From positions 160,001-224,000 of the forward strand of contig CAYSCM010000001.1 in the NCBI GenBank assembly GCA_964429815.1: DNA of 64,000 nucleotides, written 5' to 3'. Position numbers and translations under genes: made by a program. A model generated the notes under the pieces. The model searched no databases. It worked only from the letters and a program-made list of their open reading frames with translations, and had not been told where the DNA came from. Source of the stretch: an uncultured Candidatus Saccharibacteria bacterium. Its GTDB lineage: Bacteria > Patescibacteriota > Minisyncoccia > Phycocordibacterales > CAYSCM01. Positions 1,802 through 13,396 of this stretch are shown piece by piece. The first letter of the stretch is position 1; each line of letters starts with the position of its first letter.

Positions 1802-3334
1802 CTATGGAAACGGGTGGGGTGTCACATTCACCTCAAAGTCACTGCTATCTTTATATCCGAAAGGATATAAACGAGAAGAGCCGAGAGGTGCAAACGTTTC
1901 ATTCATATAAAGAGAAATAAGCCCGGGAACACAGATTTTTACTGAATGATAGTTGAGTTTTCGTAGAATGGGATGACTAGCTTCAAATAAAAATACTTCG
2001 TAAGCAGGACCTCTCGCCTTAAATAGTTCCAGTAACTCATCGAGTCTTTCTCGTGGGGATCGGATAGTTTTATCTTTCCTCAAAAAAGGTACGGGGGTGG
2101 CTGCGATAAAAAAAGAAAACCTGTCGAGAAGTTCTGGTTTCGCCCATAAGAGCTGGCGATTGAAAGCACCCCACTCAAGCGTAAAAGGTTCTATTGAATT
2201 CAGGGAAGGAAGTTCGTCACTTGGTTCATTAACGTTTTGCCAAATGCGCACACTGAGCGCCTCAACAAGAGCTCGTAACAACGAATCTTCGTCATCACCC
2301 CCACACCCACCACCAAGACTTACTGCAGCTCCTCTCCCAGTCCTATCTAACACTGCGGCAATATACACCGGAATACCTACAGCAGAGTCTAGCTGCATAA
2401 AATGAACTTCTAGACCTGCCTCCCTACATTCTTTAAGATGGTGGGTAATACGCGGATCGGTGAATGACTCGACACTTATTTTTTTTGGGATGCGTTTGGT
2501 AAGCCAGTACAGTAAAAATGCATCACGTTGAATAAGTTCATAAAGTCCCGATAGAATCGCCTCATCTCTAGTGAACATTCCCCCCGCCCCATTAGTGTTA
2601 GATTCACGTAACACGGGCTCACCCTCTGTTGCGCGGTAGTTAAAAAAAACCAGTTGTGCGGGAATGAGAGCGTCACGACGTTTTGTCAACGAATAACCTT
2701 CAACAAAGTTAAAAATGCTGTCCCTGGTAAAAAACCGTCTGGGAAAACGTTTTTTCTGCCATGTCGAAGCATGTGAAGCAAGGAAAGGGTCGAGGAAGTG
2801 TCTTTTCCCGCGCTCCAAATCGCTAATTGAGGCTCGGCACAGATCTTTTTCGCGATAAATTGATAGCGGGTAACGCTCGAGTAGTTCCCCGAATACCTTC
2901 GAGAGTGCTTCTTGTATATCACCAGATATCCCCCTACTGTATCCTCCGCTTGCCACTTCTGGGGAACCATCGGTTGGAGAATTTGCTGCCCAGAGCCTTA
3001 CCGCGAAAAGACTTGGCTCCCCATGTAAAACCTTATCGAAGGTAATGTTCGGTTGCTTTAAAACTCCATTTGCATATAAGTACTGGCTCAATATTTGCCA
3101 TTCTGGAGGAATAGGATATTGCTGGGTCGGAAGAATTTCTGGATAAGAAGGCAACGGGTGGCCATGTTTCAGTCGAAGTATATCGGCGAAAGAAACGGGT
3201 AAATGATATCGAAAATGTGGGCCGACTGGGTAGCGCAAAGGATAATTTACCTGGTTATAAAAAGGTAGATAGGTGCCTAGACCTCGTTGGTTTTCGGAAT
3301 TTTTTTCTAAAACCGTAATCGGTTGGTTAAGCAT
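1802..3334 (-). CDS. YcaO-domain protein (ATP-dependent amide-backbone activating enzyme family)
   Basis: ORF listed 1802..3460. The internal Met at 3334 gives an ATG overlapping the upstream TAA, typical translational coupling, so I take 3334 as the probable start. YcaO N-terminal motif GYSRGISGDIQEALSKVFGELLERY. Core motif SNTNGAGGMFTRDEAILSGLYELIQRDAF (compare E. coli YcaO SNGMSAGNTRNEARVQGLSEVFERY). Pro-rich C-terminus ...VTPHPFP as in azoline-forming YcaOs. Confidence 0.75.
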   Translation of the reverse strand: MLNQPITVLEKNSENQRGLGTYLPFYNQVNYPLRYPVGPHFRYHLPVSFADILRLKHGHPLPSYPEILPTQQYPIPPEWQILSQYLYANGVLKQPNITFDKVLHGEPSLFAVRLWAANSPTDGSPEVASGGYSRGISGDIQEALSKVFGELLERYPLSIYREKDLCRASISDLERGKRHFLDPFLASHASTWQKKRFPRRFFTRDSIFNFVEGYSLTKRRDALIPAQLVFFNYRATEGEPVLRESNTNGAGGMFTRDEAILSGLYELIQRDAFLLYWLTKRIPKKISVESFTDPRITHHLKECREAGLEVHFMQLDSAVGIPVYIAAVLDRTGRGAAVSLGGGCGGDDEDSLLRALVEALSVRIWQNVNEPSDELPSLNSIEPFTLEWGAFNRQLLWAKPELLDRFSFFIAATPVPFLRKDKTIRSPRERLDELLELFKARGPAYEVFLFEASHPILRKLNYHSVKICVPGLISLYMNETFAPLGSSRLYPFGYKDSSDFEVNVTPHPFP

Positions 3335-5216
3335 GTTTTTTATATAAAAGCCTTGATATACCGAGTAAAATATGTGCGCTGGAATCAACCCACGCATCGG
3401 GGTTATTGTTATCGTGACGAAATCCTCCAACAAGCTTGTCTTGTCGTTCTTTAGGAACAAAAAAAAGATTGGTTTCGTCGTACTGCATTTTAGAAAGCCA
3501 ATCTAGCGCTCTAGCAAGGACTACTTTGTTGTTTTTCGAGTCAACAGCCAAAACCTCAAAAATTTTTCCTGTACCTCGGGTAAAAGAAAAAACAGAATTT
3601 TTTGTTCGAGGAAATGACCCGTCACTATTTTGTGAATTTTTCATCCAGAAAGTCACACGGTCCACAACCTCCATATTGTGGGGGAAGAAAAGATTTACAA
3701 GTTCAGCGTATAAAGCAAACTCAATACCTTCTCGTTTCTCTATATCTTGGTCAAATTTTTCAACCAAACGTCTCTCAAGAACCGGGGCTCCGCTTTGCTC
3801 CCACTGTGCAACAGGCATAATGAGTCGAGCCAGACCAAGCGCATGTGACAGCGTTATCACATCGTCACGCCAATAAAGTGGCAATAGGGACGCTAAAAAT
3901 TTTTCTGCAAGCTTTCTTTCACCGAGAGCCCAGGCTGCTTTGCCCAGATAAGCTCTAGTTAGATCAGCGCCGGCAATTTCTCTGGGGCGCCGATCCAATT
4001 GCTTTTCTATAGCCGCCATGCCACGATGTGCCGCCTTAACATAGTCCCGTCCAATCGATATTTTGGAAAATTCCGCAAGCGCCCACACAGCATATGCCTG
4101 CCTGGGCCAATCAGCAGTAGGAGAAGTGTCCTTTCGAGCCGAGACAATGACACGGAAATTTCCATCTGCGTCTTGATTAAAAGAAAGCCAGGTGGCAATT
4201 TTTTGTGCGACAGCAATTTCATTCTCCGCATTTTCTTGTACAATAGGCCCCTTTAGCGAATATATAGTTCCTATTCTTTGCGGAAATTCTATAAGATCTT
4301 CCACTTCGAAACTTACTGTCTCGGCTTTATCGATTGAACCCTGTATCGAAGCTTTTTCCCTGGCAAGGTTTAATAACAATTCGGGCATTCCGGAAAAATG
4401 TCGAATATTGAATATTTCCGGCAAAAACCAACCGCGATGGCTGCCGAGAGCCAAAAGATACCCCTTATCAGTGTATATGTCGCTGTTCTGTTTTTCTTTT
4501 TGTGTGAGCGGAATACGTAAATGACCCATAAGCGTAATTTCGATTACGACAGTTTCAAGCTCACTAGGGCCTATAGGTTTAAAACGTGGATCTCGAGCAG
4601 CCATCATAGCCGCCGTGGCAACTGCTTGTCCGATTTCCTTATTTTCTATGATGATGGAGCCGCGAAATTGTCCCTCAATCCAGAATGCTACATCAACATC
4701 ATTACGTAAGTGTAGACGCGTAGATCTTTGTGGAAGAATAAATTTTTCATCTCCATTATTGACATAATGTGTAAGTGCATGCCGGGCAATCCTGAATAAC
4801 TCCTTCTTTTCTTCATTTAATAAACCCCACCGTAATGGCTGCGGTGAAACGTTTCGCTTTTTCGACTCACGTATCTGGATAGTTGGCGAGGAATATAGGA
4901 TGGCCCACATTTCATCTACTTCCACGGATATCGGTGAATATTCGATAATAAATGTTATAGAGTCTTTGGAAGGAGGTGGGGGGATTTCGATAGGATGGTC
5001 ACCATACGTGAGCGGAAATGAAAAAGAAAAATATCTAACCTTCCCCTTCCCTCTTAAACAAAGGATGTCCTCTTTATTCGCCAATGTGCTAATAAAAAGA
5101 AAAGTTTCTTCAATTTGACGAGAAAAATGTTTGTTAAAAAATCTCTTATGGGGGGTGAAAAAAAAACCCTTTCGCATGATGAAGGCATCATAACACTCAG
5201 AAAATATCTGTAACAA
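3327..5216 (-). CDS. AMMECR1-domain protein fused to a C-terminal alpha/alpha-toroid (prenyltransferase/terpene-cyclase-like or LanC-like) repeat domain
   Basis: AMMECR1 signature LNEEKKELFRIARHAL ... RGSIII ... AVATAAMMAARDPRF ... YLLALGSHRGWFLPEI. C-terminal Q-x-DG-x-F type repeats (NQDADGNFRV, NSQNSDGSFPR, VGGFRHDNNNPDAWVDSSAHILLGI). The true start may be an internal Met near 4910. Confidence 0.55.
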   Translation of the reverse strand: MLQIFSECYDAFIMRKGFFFTPHKRFFNKHFSRQIEETFLFISTLANKEDILCLRGKGKVRYFSFSFPLTYGDHPIEIPPPPSKDSITFIIEYSPISVEVDEMWAILYSSPTIQIRESKKRNVSPQPLRWGLLNEEKKELFRIARHALTHYVNNGDEKFILPQRSTRLHLRNDVDVAFWIEGQFRGSIIIENKEIGQAVATAAMMAARDPRFKPIGPSELETVVIEITLMGHLRIPLTQKEKQNSDIYTDKGYLLALGSHRGWFLPEIFNIRHFSGMPELLLNLAREKASIQGSIDKAETVSFEVEDLIEFPQRIGTIYSLKGPIVQENAENEIAVAQKIATWLSFNQDADGNFRVIVSARKDTSPTADWPRQAYAVWALAEFSKISIGRDYVKAAHRGMAAIEKQLDRRPREIAGADLTRAYLGKAAWALGERKLAEKFLASLLPLYWRDDVITLSHALGLARLIMPVAQWEQSGAPVLERRLVEKFDQDIEKREGIEFALYAELVNLFFPHNMEVVDRVTFWMKNSQNSDGSFPRTKNSVFSFTRGTGKIFEVLAVDSKNNKVVLARALDWLSKMQYDETNLFFVPKERQDKLVGGFRHDNNNPDAWVDSSAHILLGISRLLYKKHA

Positions 5217-10035: not shown

Positions 10036-10218
10036 ATGGCGAAGGGTGGGCGACGTAGCGACTGGCGCAATGGAAAACGAAAAGACCACGAGGAGTGTGA
10101 GAGGTTCAATCTCAAGCGTAAATCCTTTGAGCGTGGCTGCATCCGGTGCGGGCAAGGTCCCGTGGACCATACCCGCCGATGTGTACGATGTAAAACCCAA
10201 GAATCGAGGCCCGAATAG
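10036..10218 (+). CDS. Small basic zinc-ribbon protein (CxxC-x10-CxxC), hypothetical
   Basis: GAGGAG Shine-Dalgarno 5 nt before the ATG at 10036. MAKGGRRSDWRNGKRKDHEECERFNLKRKSFERGCIRCGQGPVDHTRRCVRCKTQESRPE. Followed by hairpin GAGGCCCGAATAGGGCCTC plus T-tract at 10206-10235. Confidence 0.4.
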   Translation: MAKGGRRSDWRNGKRKDHEECERFNLKRKSFERGCIRCGQGPVDHTRRCVRCKTQESRPE

Positions 10219-10249: not shown

Positions 10250-10651
10250 ATGCTCAACCCATTCCCCTACGTTCTCTCCTTCGGTGCATTCGCACCGCTG
10301 CTTATTCGACTTTCTGTTTCTCTCTTTCTCATGCTTGCCGCACGCCACCTCTGGCAAAATCGGCAGCGCGCAGTCGCGGAACTTCTCCCCAAACTAGGCT
10401 CGCTCGCGTGGCCAAAATTCTATGGCCTCCTCGGTATAGAAGTGGCTGCAGCGCTCTCACTTTTTCTCGGATTCTATACGCAAATCGGTGCCATAGCCGG
10501 TATGGTTGTCTTTCTGGGACTCCCCTACGCATTGAAGCGTTTCCCCTCGCTCTCTCCCTGGACCTACGCGCTTCCGCTTCTTCTTGCGCTCCTCTCTCTG
10601 ACTCTTCTCATAACTGGGGCGGGTATCTACGCCTTCGACTATCCGTTTTAA
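10250..10651 (+). CDS. DoxX-family small membrane protein
   Basis: Internal start MLNPFPYVLSFGAFAPLLIRLSVSLFLM... Four hydrophobic helices, DoxX-like size and pattern. Confidence 0.55.
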   Translation: MLNPFPYVLSFGAFAPLLIRLSVSLFLMLAARHLWQNRQRAVAELLPKLGSLAWPKFYGLLGIEVAAALSLFLGFYTQIGAIAGMVVFLGLPYALKRFPSLSPWTYALPLLLALLSLTLLITGAGIYAFDYPF

Positions 10652-10655
10652 CAAG

Positions 10656-10729
10656 TCCGCCCGGCAGGACTCGAACCTGCGACCTTCTCCTTAAAAGGGA
10701 GCGGCTCTACCAAACTGAGCTACGGGCGG
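10656..10729 (-). tRNA. tRNA-Lys (anticodon TTT)
   Basis: Minus-strand read: CCGCCCG-TA-GCTC-AGTTTGGTA-GAGC-C-GCTCC-CTTTTAA-GGAGA-AGGTC-GCAGG-TTCGAGT-CCTGC-CGGGCGG-A. Anticodon loop CU-UUU-AA. Confidence 0.8.
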
Positions 10730-10767
10730 ATGTGCGCTCACATTATAGCGAAAGGATGAATTGCTCA

Positions 10768-10800
10768 AGCGGAAAGGAAGAAACCCCACTTGCGTGGGGC
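10768..10800 (-). terminator. Rho-independent terminator of membrane-protein paralog 1
   Basis: Hairpin CCCCACTTGCGTGGGG followed, on the minus strand, by a T-rich tract. Confidence 0.5.
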
Positions 10801-10807
10801 TTCAAGG

Positions 10808-11449
10808 TTAACCTTCGTTCTCGAATCTCTCTTTAACGAAAGTAAGGAACTGTGAACTTACGACCGTCATGGCGGTCATGAGGCCGTATAAGATTACGAA
10901 GGTTATCACGGTCCAGAATGTTGACAGGGTCCTGCTGAAGATGGTCATCCAAGCGAAATAGAATACCATAACTGCGATGAGCCAGCTGCCAACATCCAAG
11001 TTGCGAAGTGTTATGGGACGAAGCCATTCGCATCGTTCGAAATACTTCGGCTTGCACTGCGCCCGAACATAAAAACGGGTAATGATCGCAGCGATGCCGA
11101 GGGCACTCATGAGAACAAACCACCAGTGTGATAATTCTCCCATTTTCAGTATCGCAGCGTACTCCAAGAAACCTAGCATGTAGGGAAATGCAACATCGGG
11201 GAAACGTGGTGTCGTTCTCATAATGAGTATCCACCAAGAGTATTCCGTTACTACCAGAAGTATTGCACACAATACTGCAAAAGCTTGAAGATAGAGCAAC
11301 ACGGACTCTTTTGTTTCTGCCATCCTCAAGATCAATCCACCAAGAGCGATGCTTTGGATTACTCCAAGCGAGGTGAGGTATGAAGAGGCAAAAAGTTCTT
11401 CAGAACGTCTCCGGAACTCGGCAGCATTTAGGGGCATGACAGCCTCCAT
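10808..11449 (-). CDS. Polytopic membrane protein, unknown family (paralog copy 1)
   Basis: 213 aa with about 6 hydrophobic helices (MPLNAAEFRRRSEELF...). A near-identical paralog lies 1 kb downstream. Confidence 0.6.
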   Translation of the reverse strand: MEAVMPLNAAEFRRRSEELFASSYLTSLGVIQSIALGGLILRMAETKESVLLYLQAFAVLCAILLVVTEYSWWILIMRTTPRFPDVAFPYMLGFLEYAAILKMGELSHWWFVLMSALGIAAIITRFYVRAQCKPKYFERCEWLRPITLRNLDVGSWLIAVMVFYFAWMTIFSRTLSTFWTVITFVILYGLMTAMTVVSSQFLTFVKERFENEG

Positions 11450-11553
11450 AGTCGGTTAGAACTTTTCGAAGCGACCTTACCGCAGAATCTTGCAAAAATC
11501 AATAAATATGTTATCATACTTTCTGGCAAGCTAGATTTTTGAAGGAGACGCAG

Positions 11554-11670
11554 ATGCAAGAAAGCCCTCAAAAGGAACAGGGGTTTTGGGATCGGTGGGG
11601 TACTCTGGTCTTCATCGGTCTACTCTTTGGGACCATGGCTGTAGTCGCGGCAAGCAAGCACTTCGCTTAG
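11554..11670 (+). CDS. Small single-TM peptide (38 aa) with GFW-x2-W motif, divergent from the membrane-protein gene
   Basis: RBS GAAGGAGA upstream. MQESPQKEQGFWDRWGTLVFIGLLFGTMAVVAASKHFA. Below the 60-aa cutoff of the ORF track. Conserved promoter-like TTGCAAAAATCAATAAATATGTTATCAT upstream. Own terminator. Confidence 0.45.
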   Translation: MQESPQKEQGFWDRWGTLVFIGLLFGTMAVVAASKHFA

Positions 11671-11683
11671 CGTCCCACGAACG

Positions 11684-11720
11684 GGCCCCGATGGTTTTTC
11701 ATTGGGGCCTTTTCTTTTTC
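11684..11720 (+). terminator. Rho-independent terminator after small peptide 1
   Basis: GGCCCCGATGGTTTTTCATTGGGGCC hairpin plus TTTTCTTTTT. Confidence 0.6.
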
Positions 11721-11751
11721 CTTAAATAGAAAGAATGAAACGCTCAAGCGC

Positions 11752-11780
11752 GAAAAAATAAGCCCCGCATACGCGGGGCT
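11752..11780 (-). terminator. Rho-independent terminator of paralog copy 2
   Basis: AGCCCCGCATACGCGGGGCT hairpin with a flanking T-tract on the minus strand. Confidence 0.5.
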
Positions 11781-11785
11781 CGGGT

Positions 11786-12416
11786 TCAGCTTTGGCGTTC
11801 AAATTCTTCCTTAAGCGACCTGAGGAAGTTTGAACTTATGATGGCCATCGAAACCATGAGGCCGTACAGGATGATGAAAGTTGTCACGGTCCAAAACGCT
11901 GACAGTGTTTTGCCAAAGATGGCCATCCATAGAAAATAGAAGGCCATCACAGCTACGAGACCACTGCCAATGTCAAGGTTGCGTAGCGTCAGTGGCCGGA
12001 CCCGGTCGCATTCTTCGAAATATTTTGGTTCGCATTGCCCTCGTACGTAGAAGCGCGTGATGATCGCTATGACGGCTGAGGCGGTCATACTGATATACCA
12101 CAGGGGTTCCTTGCCTATCAGCCAGCGCAATCGACACATACTCAAGGATTCCTAGCAGGTACGGAAAGACCGCGTCGAGAAAACTTGGTGTTTTCCTCAT
12201 AATTATTAGCCACCAAGTATATTCAGTTACCACCAGAAGTATTGCAAGTATTGCGGTCATGCCTTCTAACATGAGAACTGTTGAGGTTGGCGATTCAGCT
12301 ATTTTTAGTACGAGTCCACCAAGGGCGACACTTTGAATTACGCCGATCGAACTGAGATAAGACCCTGCAAACATTTCCTCGGAACGTCTTCTGAATTCCG
12401 CTGCGTTTAAAGGCAT
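11786..12416 (-). pseudogene. Frameshifted second copy of the polytopic membrane protein
   Basis: Two overlapping ORFs (11973..12416 and 11786..12145) together align end-to-end with copy 1. The frame switches near 12125-12135 (...EYVSIAL | GKEPLWYISMTASAVIAIITRFYVRGQC...). No homopolymer at the junction. Confidence 0.55.
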
Positions 12417-12523
12417 CGATACCTCCTTAGATCAGATTCGGGGCAAGTTTACAGGAAATATTGTAAAAATCAATAAATGTGATATAACTGGCTTGAAAGT
12501 TCTACTTCTTATTGGAGGTATCC

Positions 12524-12631
12524 ATGGCCCGTGAATCCAAAGGTTTCTGGCAAACCTGGGAAGCTCCTATTGGGGCTGCACTTATGCTCCTGGTACCCGC
12601 CATAGTGTTGGTTCTACTCATCAAATGGTGA
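12524..12631 (+). CDS. Small single-TM peptide (35 aa), paralog of 11554..11670
   Basis: RBS TTGGAGGT. MARESKGFWQTWEAPIGAALMLLVPAIVLVLLIKW. Same GFW-x2-W motif and the same upstream AAAAATCAATAAAT element. Confidence 0.45.
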   Translation: MARESKGFWQTWEAPIGAALMLLVPAIVLVLLIKW

Positions 12632-12651
12632 GGAAAACGAAACCAACTCGA

Positions 12652-12689
12652 AGAGGCCCGTCGCTTCAGCTGGGCCTTTTCTTTTTTAT
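12652..12689 (+). terminator. Rho-independent terminator after small peptide 2
   Basis: AGGCCCGTCGCTTCAGCTGGGCCT hairpin plus TTTTCTTTTTTATT. Confidence 0.6.
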
Positions 12690-13396
12690 TAAATCGATAA
12701 AATAAATTGCTCAAGCGCGACGGGGAGTTCGTGTTCTCCGCGACGAGCGTCGTGGTAGAGGCGGACAAGCTCGTGGGAGAGTGTCAAAAGCTCTTCTCGC
12801 GTGTAATTTTTCGCAAAACTATGTGCTTTTGAAAATACAAACGGCGAAAGCCCGCTCTCTTTGGCATTTTTCGAGGCGCTCGCGAGGAGCATCCCTTTCA
12901 CGATCCAAAAGAGCATTCCGTGAAGCTGCTCCTCCTCGGCGCCGGTTGCCCGCGCCTTTTGATACAAGACCCAGGCATTTTTCCGATCACGGCGACCGAG
13001 GGCGTCAGTGAACGCAAACACGTCAAACGATTCCTTCTTTCCCTTCGGCAACTCAACGATTTCTACTTTTTCTGCATGCCTTTCGATCTTTTTTTTAAGT
13101 TCGGCCTTGGGTTTGCTCTGAAGCACGATAAAAATATTTTCCGACTGCGCAAAATCAGCGATCTTCTCAGCAACAGACCCATCGGCCTCCTCTAAAAGTT
13201 CATCGAGGACAATCACAATTTTGTCGTGAAAGAGGTCCTGCGCACCCGCGTATTCTTCAAGCCTTCCGCTCTCAAGATCCTCGGGGGTTATGCGCACGAT
13301 GGATGGCTCATCGTAGCGACGACTCAGCCCTTCGGTGAGGGTATCGAGTTTTTCGAGCGCTTTCGCACGGTCATTGCCAATAATTGCGTAGAACAT
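12689..13396 (-). CDS. holA: DNA polymerase III delta subunit-like (short HolA)
   Basis: 235 aa. Delta-like N-terminus MFYAIIGNDRAKALEKLD and C-terminus LHGMLFWIVKGMLLA / ELVRLYHDARRGEHELPVALEQFIL. Much shorter than E. coli HolA. Confidence 0.4.
   Translation of the reverse strand: MFYAIIGNDRAKALEKLDTLTEGLSRRYDEPSIVRITPEDLESGRLEEYAGAQDLFHDKIVIVLDELLEEADGSVAEKIADFAQSENIFIVLQSKPKAELKKKIERHAEKVEIVELPKGKKESFDVFAFTDALGRRDRKNAWVLYQKARATGAEEEQLHGMLFWIVKGMLLASASKNAKESGLSPFVFSKAHSFAKNYTREELLTLSHELVRLYHDARRGEHELPVALEQFILSI

Follow-up and report, generated by a model that had tools for sequence, protein, structure and literature searches.

Two short open reading frames (ORFs) at 11554..11670 and 12524..12631 lie head to head with genes for polytopic membrane proteins in a 64,000-nucleotide (nt) stretch of an uncultured Candidatus Saccharibacteria bacterium (GenBank assembly GCA_964429815.1, contig CAYSCM010000001.1, positions 160,001 to 224,000; hereafter the window, in which the coordinates below are counted). 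The locus raises the question of whether these ORFs are genuine genes and what ties them to the membrane-protein genes beside them. An initial annotation, made from the letters alone, had described them as two unlisted peptides with a single transmembrane (TM) helix, divergent from polytopic membrane-protein genes; their coordinates and translations were verified, and the divergent layout was confirmed. The analysis firmly established that the locus is built from a conserved, self-contained two-gene membrane cassette, in which an unannotated, protein-coding small gene is paired with a gene for a protein of six TM helices (6-TM protein).

In a word-indexed homologue search, the single 6-TM protein returned self matches only, while an exhaustive profile search recovered 275 homologues (E≤1e-3), among them a close subfamily of ~210 amino acids (aa) at 30–42% identity. 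DNA surrounding relatives was fetched as metagenomic contigs (L003, L004, L005, L006, L007, L008, L009 and, later, L015). In total, eight peptide/6-TM pairs were found on seven contigs, the window and six others, together with one orphan peptide in L003. Wherever the 6-TM gene was N-terminally complete and the upstream DNA sufficient, a divergent 31–58-aa single-TM ORF with a Shine-Dalgarno sequence (SD) and a terminator was present, and the 6-TM genes of the six other contigs, only 30–42% identical, nevertheless stand in the same cassette layout. L015, fetched last, served as a blind test: the predicted 42-aa ORF (MTHRQQPSQRRTETFIAIGCFAYLALYVTLVVLTDAFKIPLL), its SD, a central TTG-N7-CAA in the control region and the terminator were all present. 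Conservation of the pair elsewhere, which the initial annotation had named as a check, was thus borne out by the same geometry on six other contigs, one of them examined blind.

Some of these loci are partly decayed. In L003, two paralogous peptides (468-563 and 1499-1621; MMKWWR...) lie on either side of the only 6-TM gene; of these, the copy beside the 6-TM promoter (L003a) is cut to 31 aa with a weak core, and the intact 40-aa copy (L003b) is an orphan with its own promoter block. In L005 (~2900-3070), the 6-TM gene is frameshifted, as is one copy in the window, with an N-terminal MPLNTAEF... out of frame with the called 200-aa product; the partner peptide and both promoters look intact there, and no second copy lies within 3 kilobases (kb). 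L006, which comes from the same sample as L015, carries at 2989-3483 a 6-TM remnant that lacks its N-terminus (residues ~42-210 are left), has no partner peptide and overlaps with the end of an RNase T-like gene.

That the small ORFs are genes was evaluated on several grounds. Both window peptides have an SD (GAAGGAGA, 6 nt upstream of the ATG at 11554, and GGAGG ahead of the ATG at 12524) and a single hydrophobic core (Kyte-Doolittle 2.3 for peptide 1 and 2.9 for peptide 2, over 17 residues), and both are followed by a terminator hairpin, in agreement with the good ribosome-binding site, TM helix and strong terminator that had been attributed to each. A small-ORF filter requiring an ATG, an SD, a length of 28–60 aa and a hydrophobic core, applied to both strands of the 64-kb window, selected exactly two ORFs, peptides 1 and 2; in L003, L004, L005, L007 and L015 it picked the partner peptide alone. 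No other candidates appeared in the window and the other fetched loci (~111 kb in total), nothing was returned in three control loci of distant 6-TM homologues, and the partner peptide of L008 and the truncated L003a copy scored below the thresholds. The label 'unlisted' held as well: peptides 1 and 2 are absent from a collection of 15 billion proteins and uncalled on two 100%-identical Logan contigs, and Pfam, NCBIfam, PADLOC and PDB-sequence searches with them gave nothing usable.

The substitution patterns point in the same direction. Although the two window peptides share a nucleotide identity of only 36%, each retains its SD, an open frame, the TM helix and a stretch of exactly 26 codons running from GFW to the stop, and the Gly and Phe codons of this motif differ only synonymously between them (GGG/GGT and TTT/TTC). 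The L003 paralogues differ over their first 24 codons by 8 synonymous and 9 non-synonymous codon changes (non-synonymous rate dN 0.27; synonymous rate dS saturated), which reads as a protein-coding signature; for dN/dS the L003 pair alone was informative, the window copies being only 36% identical. The synonymous/non-synonymous pattern, which the initial annotation had named as a test of coding, is consistent with coding in the L003 paralogues and the GFW codons. Across the nine known peptides (31–58 aa), each has one hydrophobic core and most have an N-terminal excess of Lys and Arg; eight of them retain ORF, SD and a core of TM length, the exception being the truncated L003a copy with its short, weaker core. 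The GFW..W motif was correctly seen in both window peptides, where G[FWY]W..W has its only two occurrences in the six-frame translation of the window, but it is private to this genome and was rejected as a family signature, being absent from other lineages; an MT..R..Q.R-type N-terminus is common to the L005, L007, L015 and L008 peptides, a KWWR-type one is found in L003 (MMKWWR...), and the sequences are otherwise lineage-specific and fast-diverging. Judged by sequence, the peptides thus behave as real, selected coding genes. It is very improbable that they are chance ORFs in intergenic DNA: such an origin would fit their being unannotated in any source, but the filter candidates occur only at the predicted position across ~111 kb, the anatomy recurs on seven contigs including the blind test, and synonymous changes fall inside conserved motifs.

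In the window locus itself, a ~0.98-kb cassette is duplicated in tandem. Both units have the order terminator, peptide gene, two-way promoter (a control region of ~100 bp), 6-TM gene, terminator, and every gene at the locus has a terminator of its own. Its features are as follows.

10743..10771, no strand assigned: leftmost copy of repeat R, a remnant of the holA 3′ end whose minus strand encodes ...PLEQFILSL*
10780..10803, minus strand: intrinsic terminator of 6-TM gene 1
10808..11437, minus strand: 6-TM gene 1, intact, 209 aa from MPLN, SD GGAGG, frame open to 11449
11474..11517, no strand assigned: core of the two-way promoter of unit 1, its central TTGCAAAAATCAA at 11490..11502 read as two abutting back-to-back −35 hexamers
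11554..11670, plus strand: peptide 1, 38 aa with one TM helix, MQESPQKEQGFWDRWGTLVFIGLLFGTMAVVAASKHFA
11683..11710, plus strand: intrinsic terminator of peptide 1, hairpin of −24.3 kcal/mol, z −3.8
11722..11753, no strand assigned: junction copy of repeat R, a remnant of the holA 3′ end whose minus strand encodes ...ALERFILSI*
11760..11781, minus strand: intrinsic terminator of 6-TM gene 2
11786..12416, minus strand: 6-TM gene 2, frameshifted, ~64% amino acid identity to gene 1
12461..12473, no strand assigned: centre of the two-way promoter of unit 2, TTGTAAAAATCAA
12524..12631, plus strand: peptide 2, 35 aa with one TM helix, MARESKGFWQTWEAPIGAALMLLVPAIVLVLLIKW
12650..12681, plus strand: intrinsic terminator of peptide 2, hairpin of −20.7 kcal/mol followed by a T-run
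12672..12720, no strand assigned: rightmost copy of repeat R, overlapping the true 3′ end of holA (12689..13396, minus strand; C-terminus ...ALEQFILSI*)

Between the two units, nucleotide identity is 65% in the 6-TM gene, 82% in the promoter core and 36% in the peptide ORF. The true start of 6-TM gene 1 is the MPLN at 11437, not 11449. In 6-TM gene 2, one extra base at 12122 (GCGCTG-G-CTGATA) splits the gene into ORFs of 147 aa and 117/119 aa, both of which are listed as separate proteins (P0002 and P0003). This break is seen in three assemblies, identically in two Logan assemblies (SRR12313479/80), and is probably real rather than an assembly error because it is reproduced in independent assemblies; 6-TM gene 2 is thus probably a pseudogene. 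A programmed frameshift was judged unlikely, the site GCGCTGGCTG not being slippery, and the pseudogene was preferred. The tandem duplication, the pseudogenised partner, the two-way promoter, the fold of the membrane protein and the flanking gene-end duplications described below had all been overlooked in the initial annotation. A tRNA-Lys(UUU) gene (10655..10729, minus strand) adjoins the left end of the array.

The control region between the two genes has a nearly fixed geometry. Start codons lie 89–116 base pairs (bp) apart in all eight pairs, and seven of these have a TTG-N7-CAA no more than ~5 bp from the midpoint (L003a has TCG-N6-CAA), for which the chance per region in shuffled sequences is 0.006. 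We infer a symmetric two-way promoter here, in which this element supplies a −35 hexamer to each strand, the two hexamers abutting back to back and the −35 to −10 spacers measuring 16–17 nt. Peptide 1 would be transcribed from TTGCAA-16-TATCAT with a TG extension (11490..11517; −10 box at 11512..11517) and peptide 2 from TTGTAA-16-TATAAC, while the membrane-side −10 boxes are TAAGGT in unit 1 (complement of 11474..11479) and TAAACT in unit 2. Over all pairs, the peptide-side −10 boxes (TATCAT, TATAAC, TATTAT, TATAAT, TATACT twice and TAAAGT) are near consensus and mostly TG-extended, with a good promoter match in all pairs but L008, whereas those on the membrane side (TAAGGT, TAAACT, TAGGTT, CATAGT, CATGGT, TAGGAT and TACTCT) are mostly weaker, of TAxxxT or CATxGT form. 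Transcription would accordingly start at sites ~55–60 bp apart, the two RNA polymerases would compete, and the peptide would normally be in excess. The predicted peptide leaders, 26–36 nt from −10 box to ATG, have folding energies like those of shuffled sequences (z +0.27, +0.54, −0.22 and −0.11).

What kind of protein the 6-TM gene encodes was addressed by comparing sequences and predicted structures. The initial annotation had called its family unrecognised, and indeed no Pfam (E≤1), NCBIfam or PADLOC family and no PDB-sequence match was found. An AlphaFold2 model built from a 53-sequence alignment shows six long helices (predicted local distance difference test, pLDDT, 95; predicted template modelling score, pTM, 0.89) and comes closest to bacterial TMEM175, whose helix arrangement and six-TM subunit it shares; the top Foldseek match was the TMEM175 chain 5vre_A, albeit a weak one (E 0.67). 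The loops carry 13 Lys and Arg inside versus 3 outside, predicting an N-in/C-in topology. Three helices contain the near-invariant positions: helix 1 (F20, Y24, Q32), the end of helix 2 (E69-Y70-x-W72-[WF]73) and helix 3 (D85, P89, G93). These positions fall mostly within the cytoplasmic half of helices 1–3, and helices 5–6 are variable, which is the same conservation pattern as in TMEM175 (PMC7176437). The signature of TMEM175, RxxxFSD at the start of helix 1 (PMC7176437), was not seen in the 53- or 149-sequence alignments, in which the consensus is instead R-x4-F-[PA]-x2-Y-L-T-x-I-x-I-I-Q-G, and profile searches of PDB sequences with the family returned no TMEM175 chain. Because this motif is absent and no sequence link was found, the protein appears, from the model, to be TMEM175-like in fold and not a member of the TMEM175 family; most likely it is a channel or pore-type protein.

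Most relatives of the 6-TM protein are stand-alone proteins of ~210–290 aa, and fusions occur in 5 of 149 relatives, to Mrr_cat (2), Trypco2/Pepco (2) and WD40 (1); Pepco is a protease-activated death effector (bioRxiv 10.1101/2025.11.14.688446). In a high-GC organism (L011-L013), a distant member directly follows a 616-aa MscS-family channel gene, its start abutting the stop of that gene (2500/2501), and the two are probably co-transcribed; in L014 another distant member has a KefB-like K+ efflux gene and a MAPEG gene nearby. The MscS and KefB-like contexts hint at a role of the 6-TM family in ion homeostasis.

The cassette is also bracketed by direct repeats. In the window, repeat R (~30–50 nt) occurs in three copies, one on either side of the array and one between its two units, and corresponds to the last codons of holA (49 nt, 84% identity). 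Similar repeats were found in L015 (2111-2219 and 3193-3301; 62–109 nt, 84–95% identity; last ~36 codons of a 241-aa gene), L005 (2581-2644 and 3627-3690; 54–64 nt, 84–89%; last ~17 codons of cysS) and L003 (246-277 and 1859-1890; 32 nt, 94%; last ~10 codons of a 185-aa gene). Bracketing direct repeats of 32–109 nt thus exist in four genomes, and the duplicated gene end differs in each; L004 has no flanking repeat, and the flanks of L007 and L008 were too short for this comparison. Gene neighbourhoods differ in every genome, and the window array (10600-12800) has a GC content of 44–50% as against 52–60% in flanking genes. Called genes on the fetched flanks had no Pfam match to an integrase or transposase (the L003 flanks carry no gene annotation). 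These flanking duplications are consistent with insertion by long target duplication, and the cassette is probably mobile; the arrangement R-unit-R-unit-R is what unequal crossing-over between the repeats would produce. A pattern scan of 185,579 species-representative genomes found no close homologue, and a metagenome contig collection yielded one locus only. A viral contig scan, phage and plasmid tblastn and a BFVD fold search found no relative, which leaves a phage or plasmid origin of the cassette unsupported. The outer terminator hairpins are near-identical in L015 (2235-2266 / 3148-3179; 32 nt, 94%) and identical in L008 (3-25 / 1008-1030; 23 nt, 100%), resembling terminal repeats, and such hairpins were not seen in the window.

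With respect to function, we consider it about an even chance that the peptide is the dedicated partner, through a putative physical interaction, of a channel-like 6-TM protein in a mobile two-gene membrane module. The logic of a dedicated small partner leads because the pair and its geometry recur on six other contigs beside 6-TM genes of such low identity. The initial annotation had invoked accessory or regulatory subunits of the KdpF, MgtS and AcrZ kind, or else type I toxin-like modules; this genetic coupling on six contigs made the former the leading reading, and the latter found no support. In such a module, the peptide would insert with its N-terminus in the cytoplasm, the promoter geometry would fix the peptide/6-TM expression ratio with the peptide in excess, and the 6-TM protein would act as a channel or pore-type protein. 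In the favoured variant, the peptide would hold the 6-TM protein in check, as an antitoxin-like factor or a gating subunit, and the toxin-antitoxin-like module would spread by insertion with long target duplication and amplify by unequal crossing-over between flanking repeats. An inhibitory role is favoured because the peptide-side promoter is usually the stronger one, because the cassette resembles selfish two-gene units in its apparent mobility, amplification and decay, because family members are occasionally wired into conflict systems, and because in L005 and window unit 2 an intact, apparently well-expressed peptide is tolerated although the 6-TM gene beside it is broken, which would be hard to reconcile with the peptide as a toxin. 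The furthest extension of this proposal is a previously undescribed class of mobile toxin-antitoxin-like modules, in which a TMEM175-like 6-TM protein would be the potentially lethal effector and a fast-evolving, lineage-specific peptide, in excess owing to the stronger promoter arm, its plug or gate, the unit spreading among small-genome uncultivated bacteria by long target duplication at gene 3′ ends; we regard it as speculative and, taken as a whole, unlikely.

Several observations weigh against the proposed partnership or its inhibitory variant. No small TM ORF lies adjacent to the three distant 6-TM family members examined; the peptide partner therefore appears to be a feature of the close subfamily, and the 6-TM fold in general would not depend on a peptide. 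Eight pairs are too few for covariation. The promoters are predictions that assume sigma-70-type rules for the host, and two of them depart from the expected imbalance, the peptide-side −10 box of L008 being poor and the membrane-side box of L005 being a perfect consensus TATAAT. The flanking repeats are equally compatible with local duplication followed by decay. Finally, broken 6-TM genes with an intact peptide (window unit 2, L005 and the orphan L003b) fit the loss of a toxin first, and the same is predicted by the size of the 6-TM gene, which as a mutational target is 5.6-fold larger; decay of the toxin first was therefore set aside as evidence of polarity.

On a more modest explanation, the peptide is an obligate but benign stabilising or assembly subunit of the KdpF/CydX type, nothing in the pair behaves like a toxin or a selfish element, and the flanking repeats record nothing other than local duplication and decay. 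The conserved pair and a promoter geometry implying a fixed expression ratio speak for such a subunit, target size alone accounts for the decay pattern, and small subunits such as CioY and CydX diverge in sequence yet keep their role (PMC12648545). Against it, distant 6-TM homologues do without a neighbouring peptide, a pseudogenised copy is tolerated, and close homologues are very rare (none in the species-representative genomes and the single metagenome-collection locus), while varied neighbourhoods, gene-end duplications in four genomes and lower GC content fit accessory or mobile DNA. We therefore consider a benign subunit the best placed of the alternatives, albeit with a probability well below even. 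A role of the control region itself was also weighed, in which only the promoter is shared, and the two products have unrelated targets or the small unit regulates the 6-TM promoter by competition with the peptide being secondary. The promoter block is indeed the best conserved part between the window copies (82% versus 36% for the ORF), and the abutting −35 boxes would suggest mutual exclusion of RNA polymerase; the ORF, SD and TM-length core are nonetheless kept in 8 of 9 copies despite near-random nucleotide identity, the L003 paralogues carry a dN/dS signal, and the transcripts have no excess structure, which together render this reading improbable.

The roles might also be reversed, with the peptide as a membrane-depolarising toxin or leaderless bacteriocin and the 6-TM protein as its immunity protein. 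Such a locus would resemble the immunity genes of pore-forming colicins and bacteriocins, as well as type I toxins. Immunity genes for pore-forming toxins encode polytopic membrane proteins and are often opposite in direction to the toxin gene, and the small, hydrophobic, fast-evolving peptide (36% nucleotide identity, as against 65% for the neighbouring 6-TM gene) and the tandem amplification, decay and apparent mobility of the cassette would suit such a system. This reversal nevertheless appears distinctly unlikely. In L005, the peptide gene is intact and its promoter strong although the 6-TM gene beside it is frameshifted and the nearest 3 kb contain no second copy, and window unit 2 likewise combines a broken 6-TM gene with an intact peptide; the near-consensus promoter looks constitutive, the SD is strong, the leader is unstructured and no antisense RNA signal was found; there is no double-glycine leader and there are no export or processing genes, the neighbours being housekeeping genes at all loci; and the 6-TM family is widespread without peptides. 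A type I toxin-antitoxin system is not supported either. Like Hok, TisB, Fst and TimP, the peptide is a small, very hydrophobic one-TM product with its own promoter and terminator at duplicated, decaying loci, but here no antisense or overlapping RNA is predicted, the conserved neighbour is a protein gene and not a small RNA gene, and the leader is short and unstructured with a strong, exposed SD. Inspection of the opposite strand, across each window peptide ORF and immediately downstream of it, revealed nothing promoter-like, the promoters are near consensus, and Rfam searches of the locus (E-value mode) and of the whole window (gathering mode) gave tRNAs only, on which ground a known small RNA or riboswitch at the locus was rejected too. 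The type I toxin-like module of the initial annotation is unsupported on the same evidence, namely no antisense promoter, no RNA family and short unstructured leaders with strong SDs.

Compared with known systems, the dedicated-partner proposal finds its nearest relatives in KdpF (29 aa, KdpABC), AcrZ (49 aa, AcrB), MgtS/MgtR (MgtA/MgtC) and CydX (cytochrome bd), in which a ~30–60-aa one-TM peptide is tied genetically to a larger membrane protein (PMC12648545) and sequence diverges fast while the biophysical design is kept. The peptides described here resemble such small accessory membrane proteins in having ≤60 aa, a single TM helix and conserved linkage to a partner. They differ in that the partner belongs to an uncharacterised family with which they would interact, that the two genes are neither in an operon nor unlinked but share one symmetric two-way promoter with 89–116 bp from start to start, and that the pair looks like a mobile, duplicating cassette. 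The membrane partner resembles the TMEM175/DUF1211 K+ channels (CmTMEM175 5VRE and MtTMEM175 6HD8; PMC7176437) in its ~200-aa six-TM subunit, in conserved helices 1–3 and variable helices 5–6, and in polar and aromatic residues near the cytoplasmic ends of helices 1–3, and differs in having R-x4-F-[PA]-x2-Y-L-T..IQ in place of RxxxFSD and no hidden Markov model or sequence link. A further difference concerns the pairing itself: to our knowledge, no small-peptide partner of TMEM175 has been described.

Two other comparisons bear on the toxin-antitoxin-like variant. The fusion of distant 6-TM members to Mrr_cat, Trypco2/Pepco and WD40 recalls the TM effectors of conflict systems (Kaur et al. 2020, PMC7159879; Pepco/Trypco2, bioRxiv 10.1101/2025.11.14.688446), but fusions were found in only 5 of the 149 sampled relatives, and the window protein is a stand-alone protein of 209 aa with no defence genes adjacent and no PADLOC match of note. 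Gene units with long target duplications (PMC2853133) are likewise short, lack an integrase or transposase and are bracketed by direct repeats of >30 bp derived from a target that varies by genome; their cargo is restriction-modification genes, whereas here it is a membrane peptide and a 6-TM protein, and the repeats here are specifically the last codons of the neighbouring gene.

The pairing of a small TM peptide with a polytopic protein is a known logic (PMC12648545). We found no published description of the peptide family, the 6-TM family, a fixed-distance promoter with abutting −35 boxes, or the flanking gene-end duplications of the cassette. The locus would add a conserved, unannotated small-protein family and offer a first handle on a widespread 6-TM family that has no Pfam domain (275 representative relatives), a family connected by its structure with the prokaryotic TMEM175-type channels, which are themselves poorly understood. 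The symmetric promoter would represent a compact and testable way of keeping two membrane proteins in a fixed ratio. Should the peptide indeed restrain a channel-like effector, the pair would constitute a new type of protein-protein membrane toxin-antitoxin module. The cassette would also be a non-restriction-modification case of insertion by long target duplication, and this in genomes whose accessory functions are difficult to detect.

Elsewhere in the window, an uncalled ORF at 10037..10218 on the plus strand encodes a 60-aa basic product with two CxxC pairs (MAKGGRRSDW...CIRC...CVRC...). It is preceded by an SD (GAGGAG), followed by a hairpin, divergent from a SpoU-type methyltransferase gene and upstream of a DoxX-like gene, and from its sequence may be a small zinc-ribbon protein.

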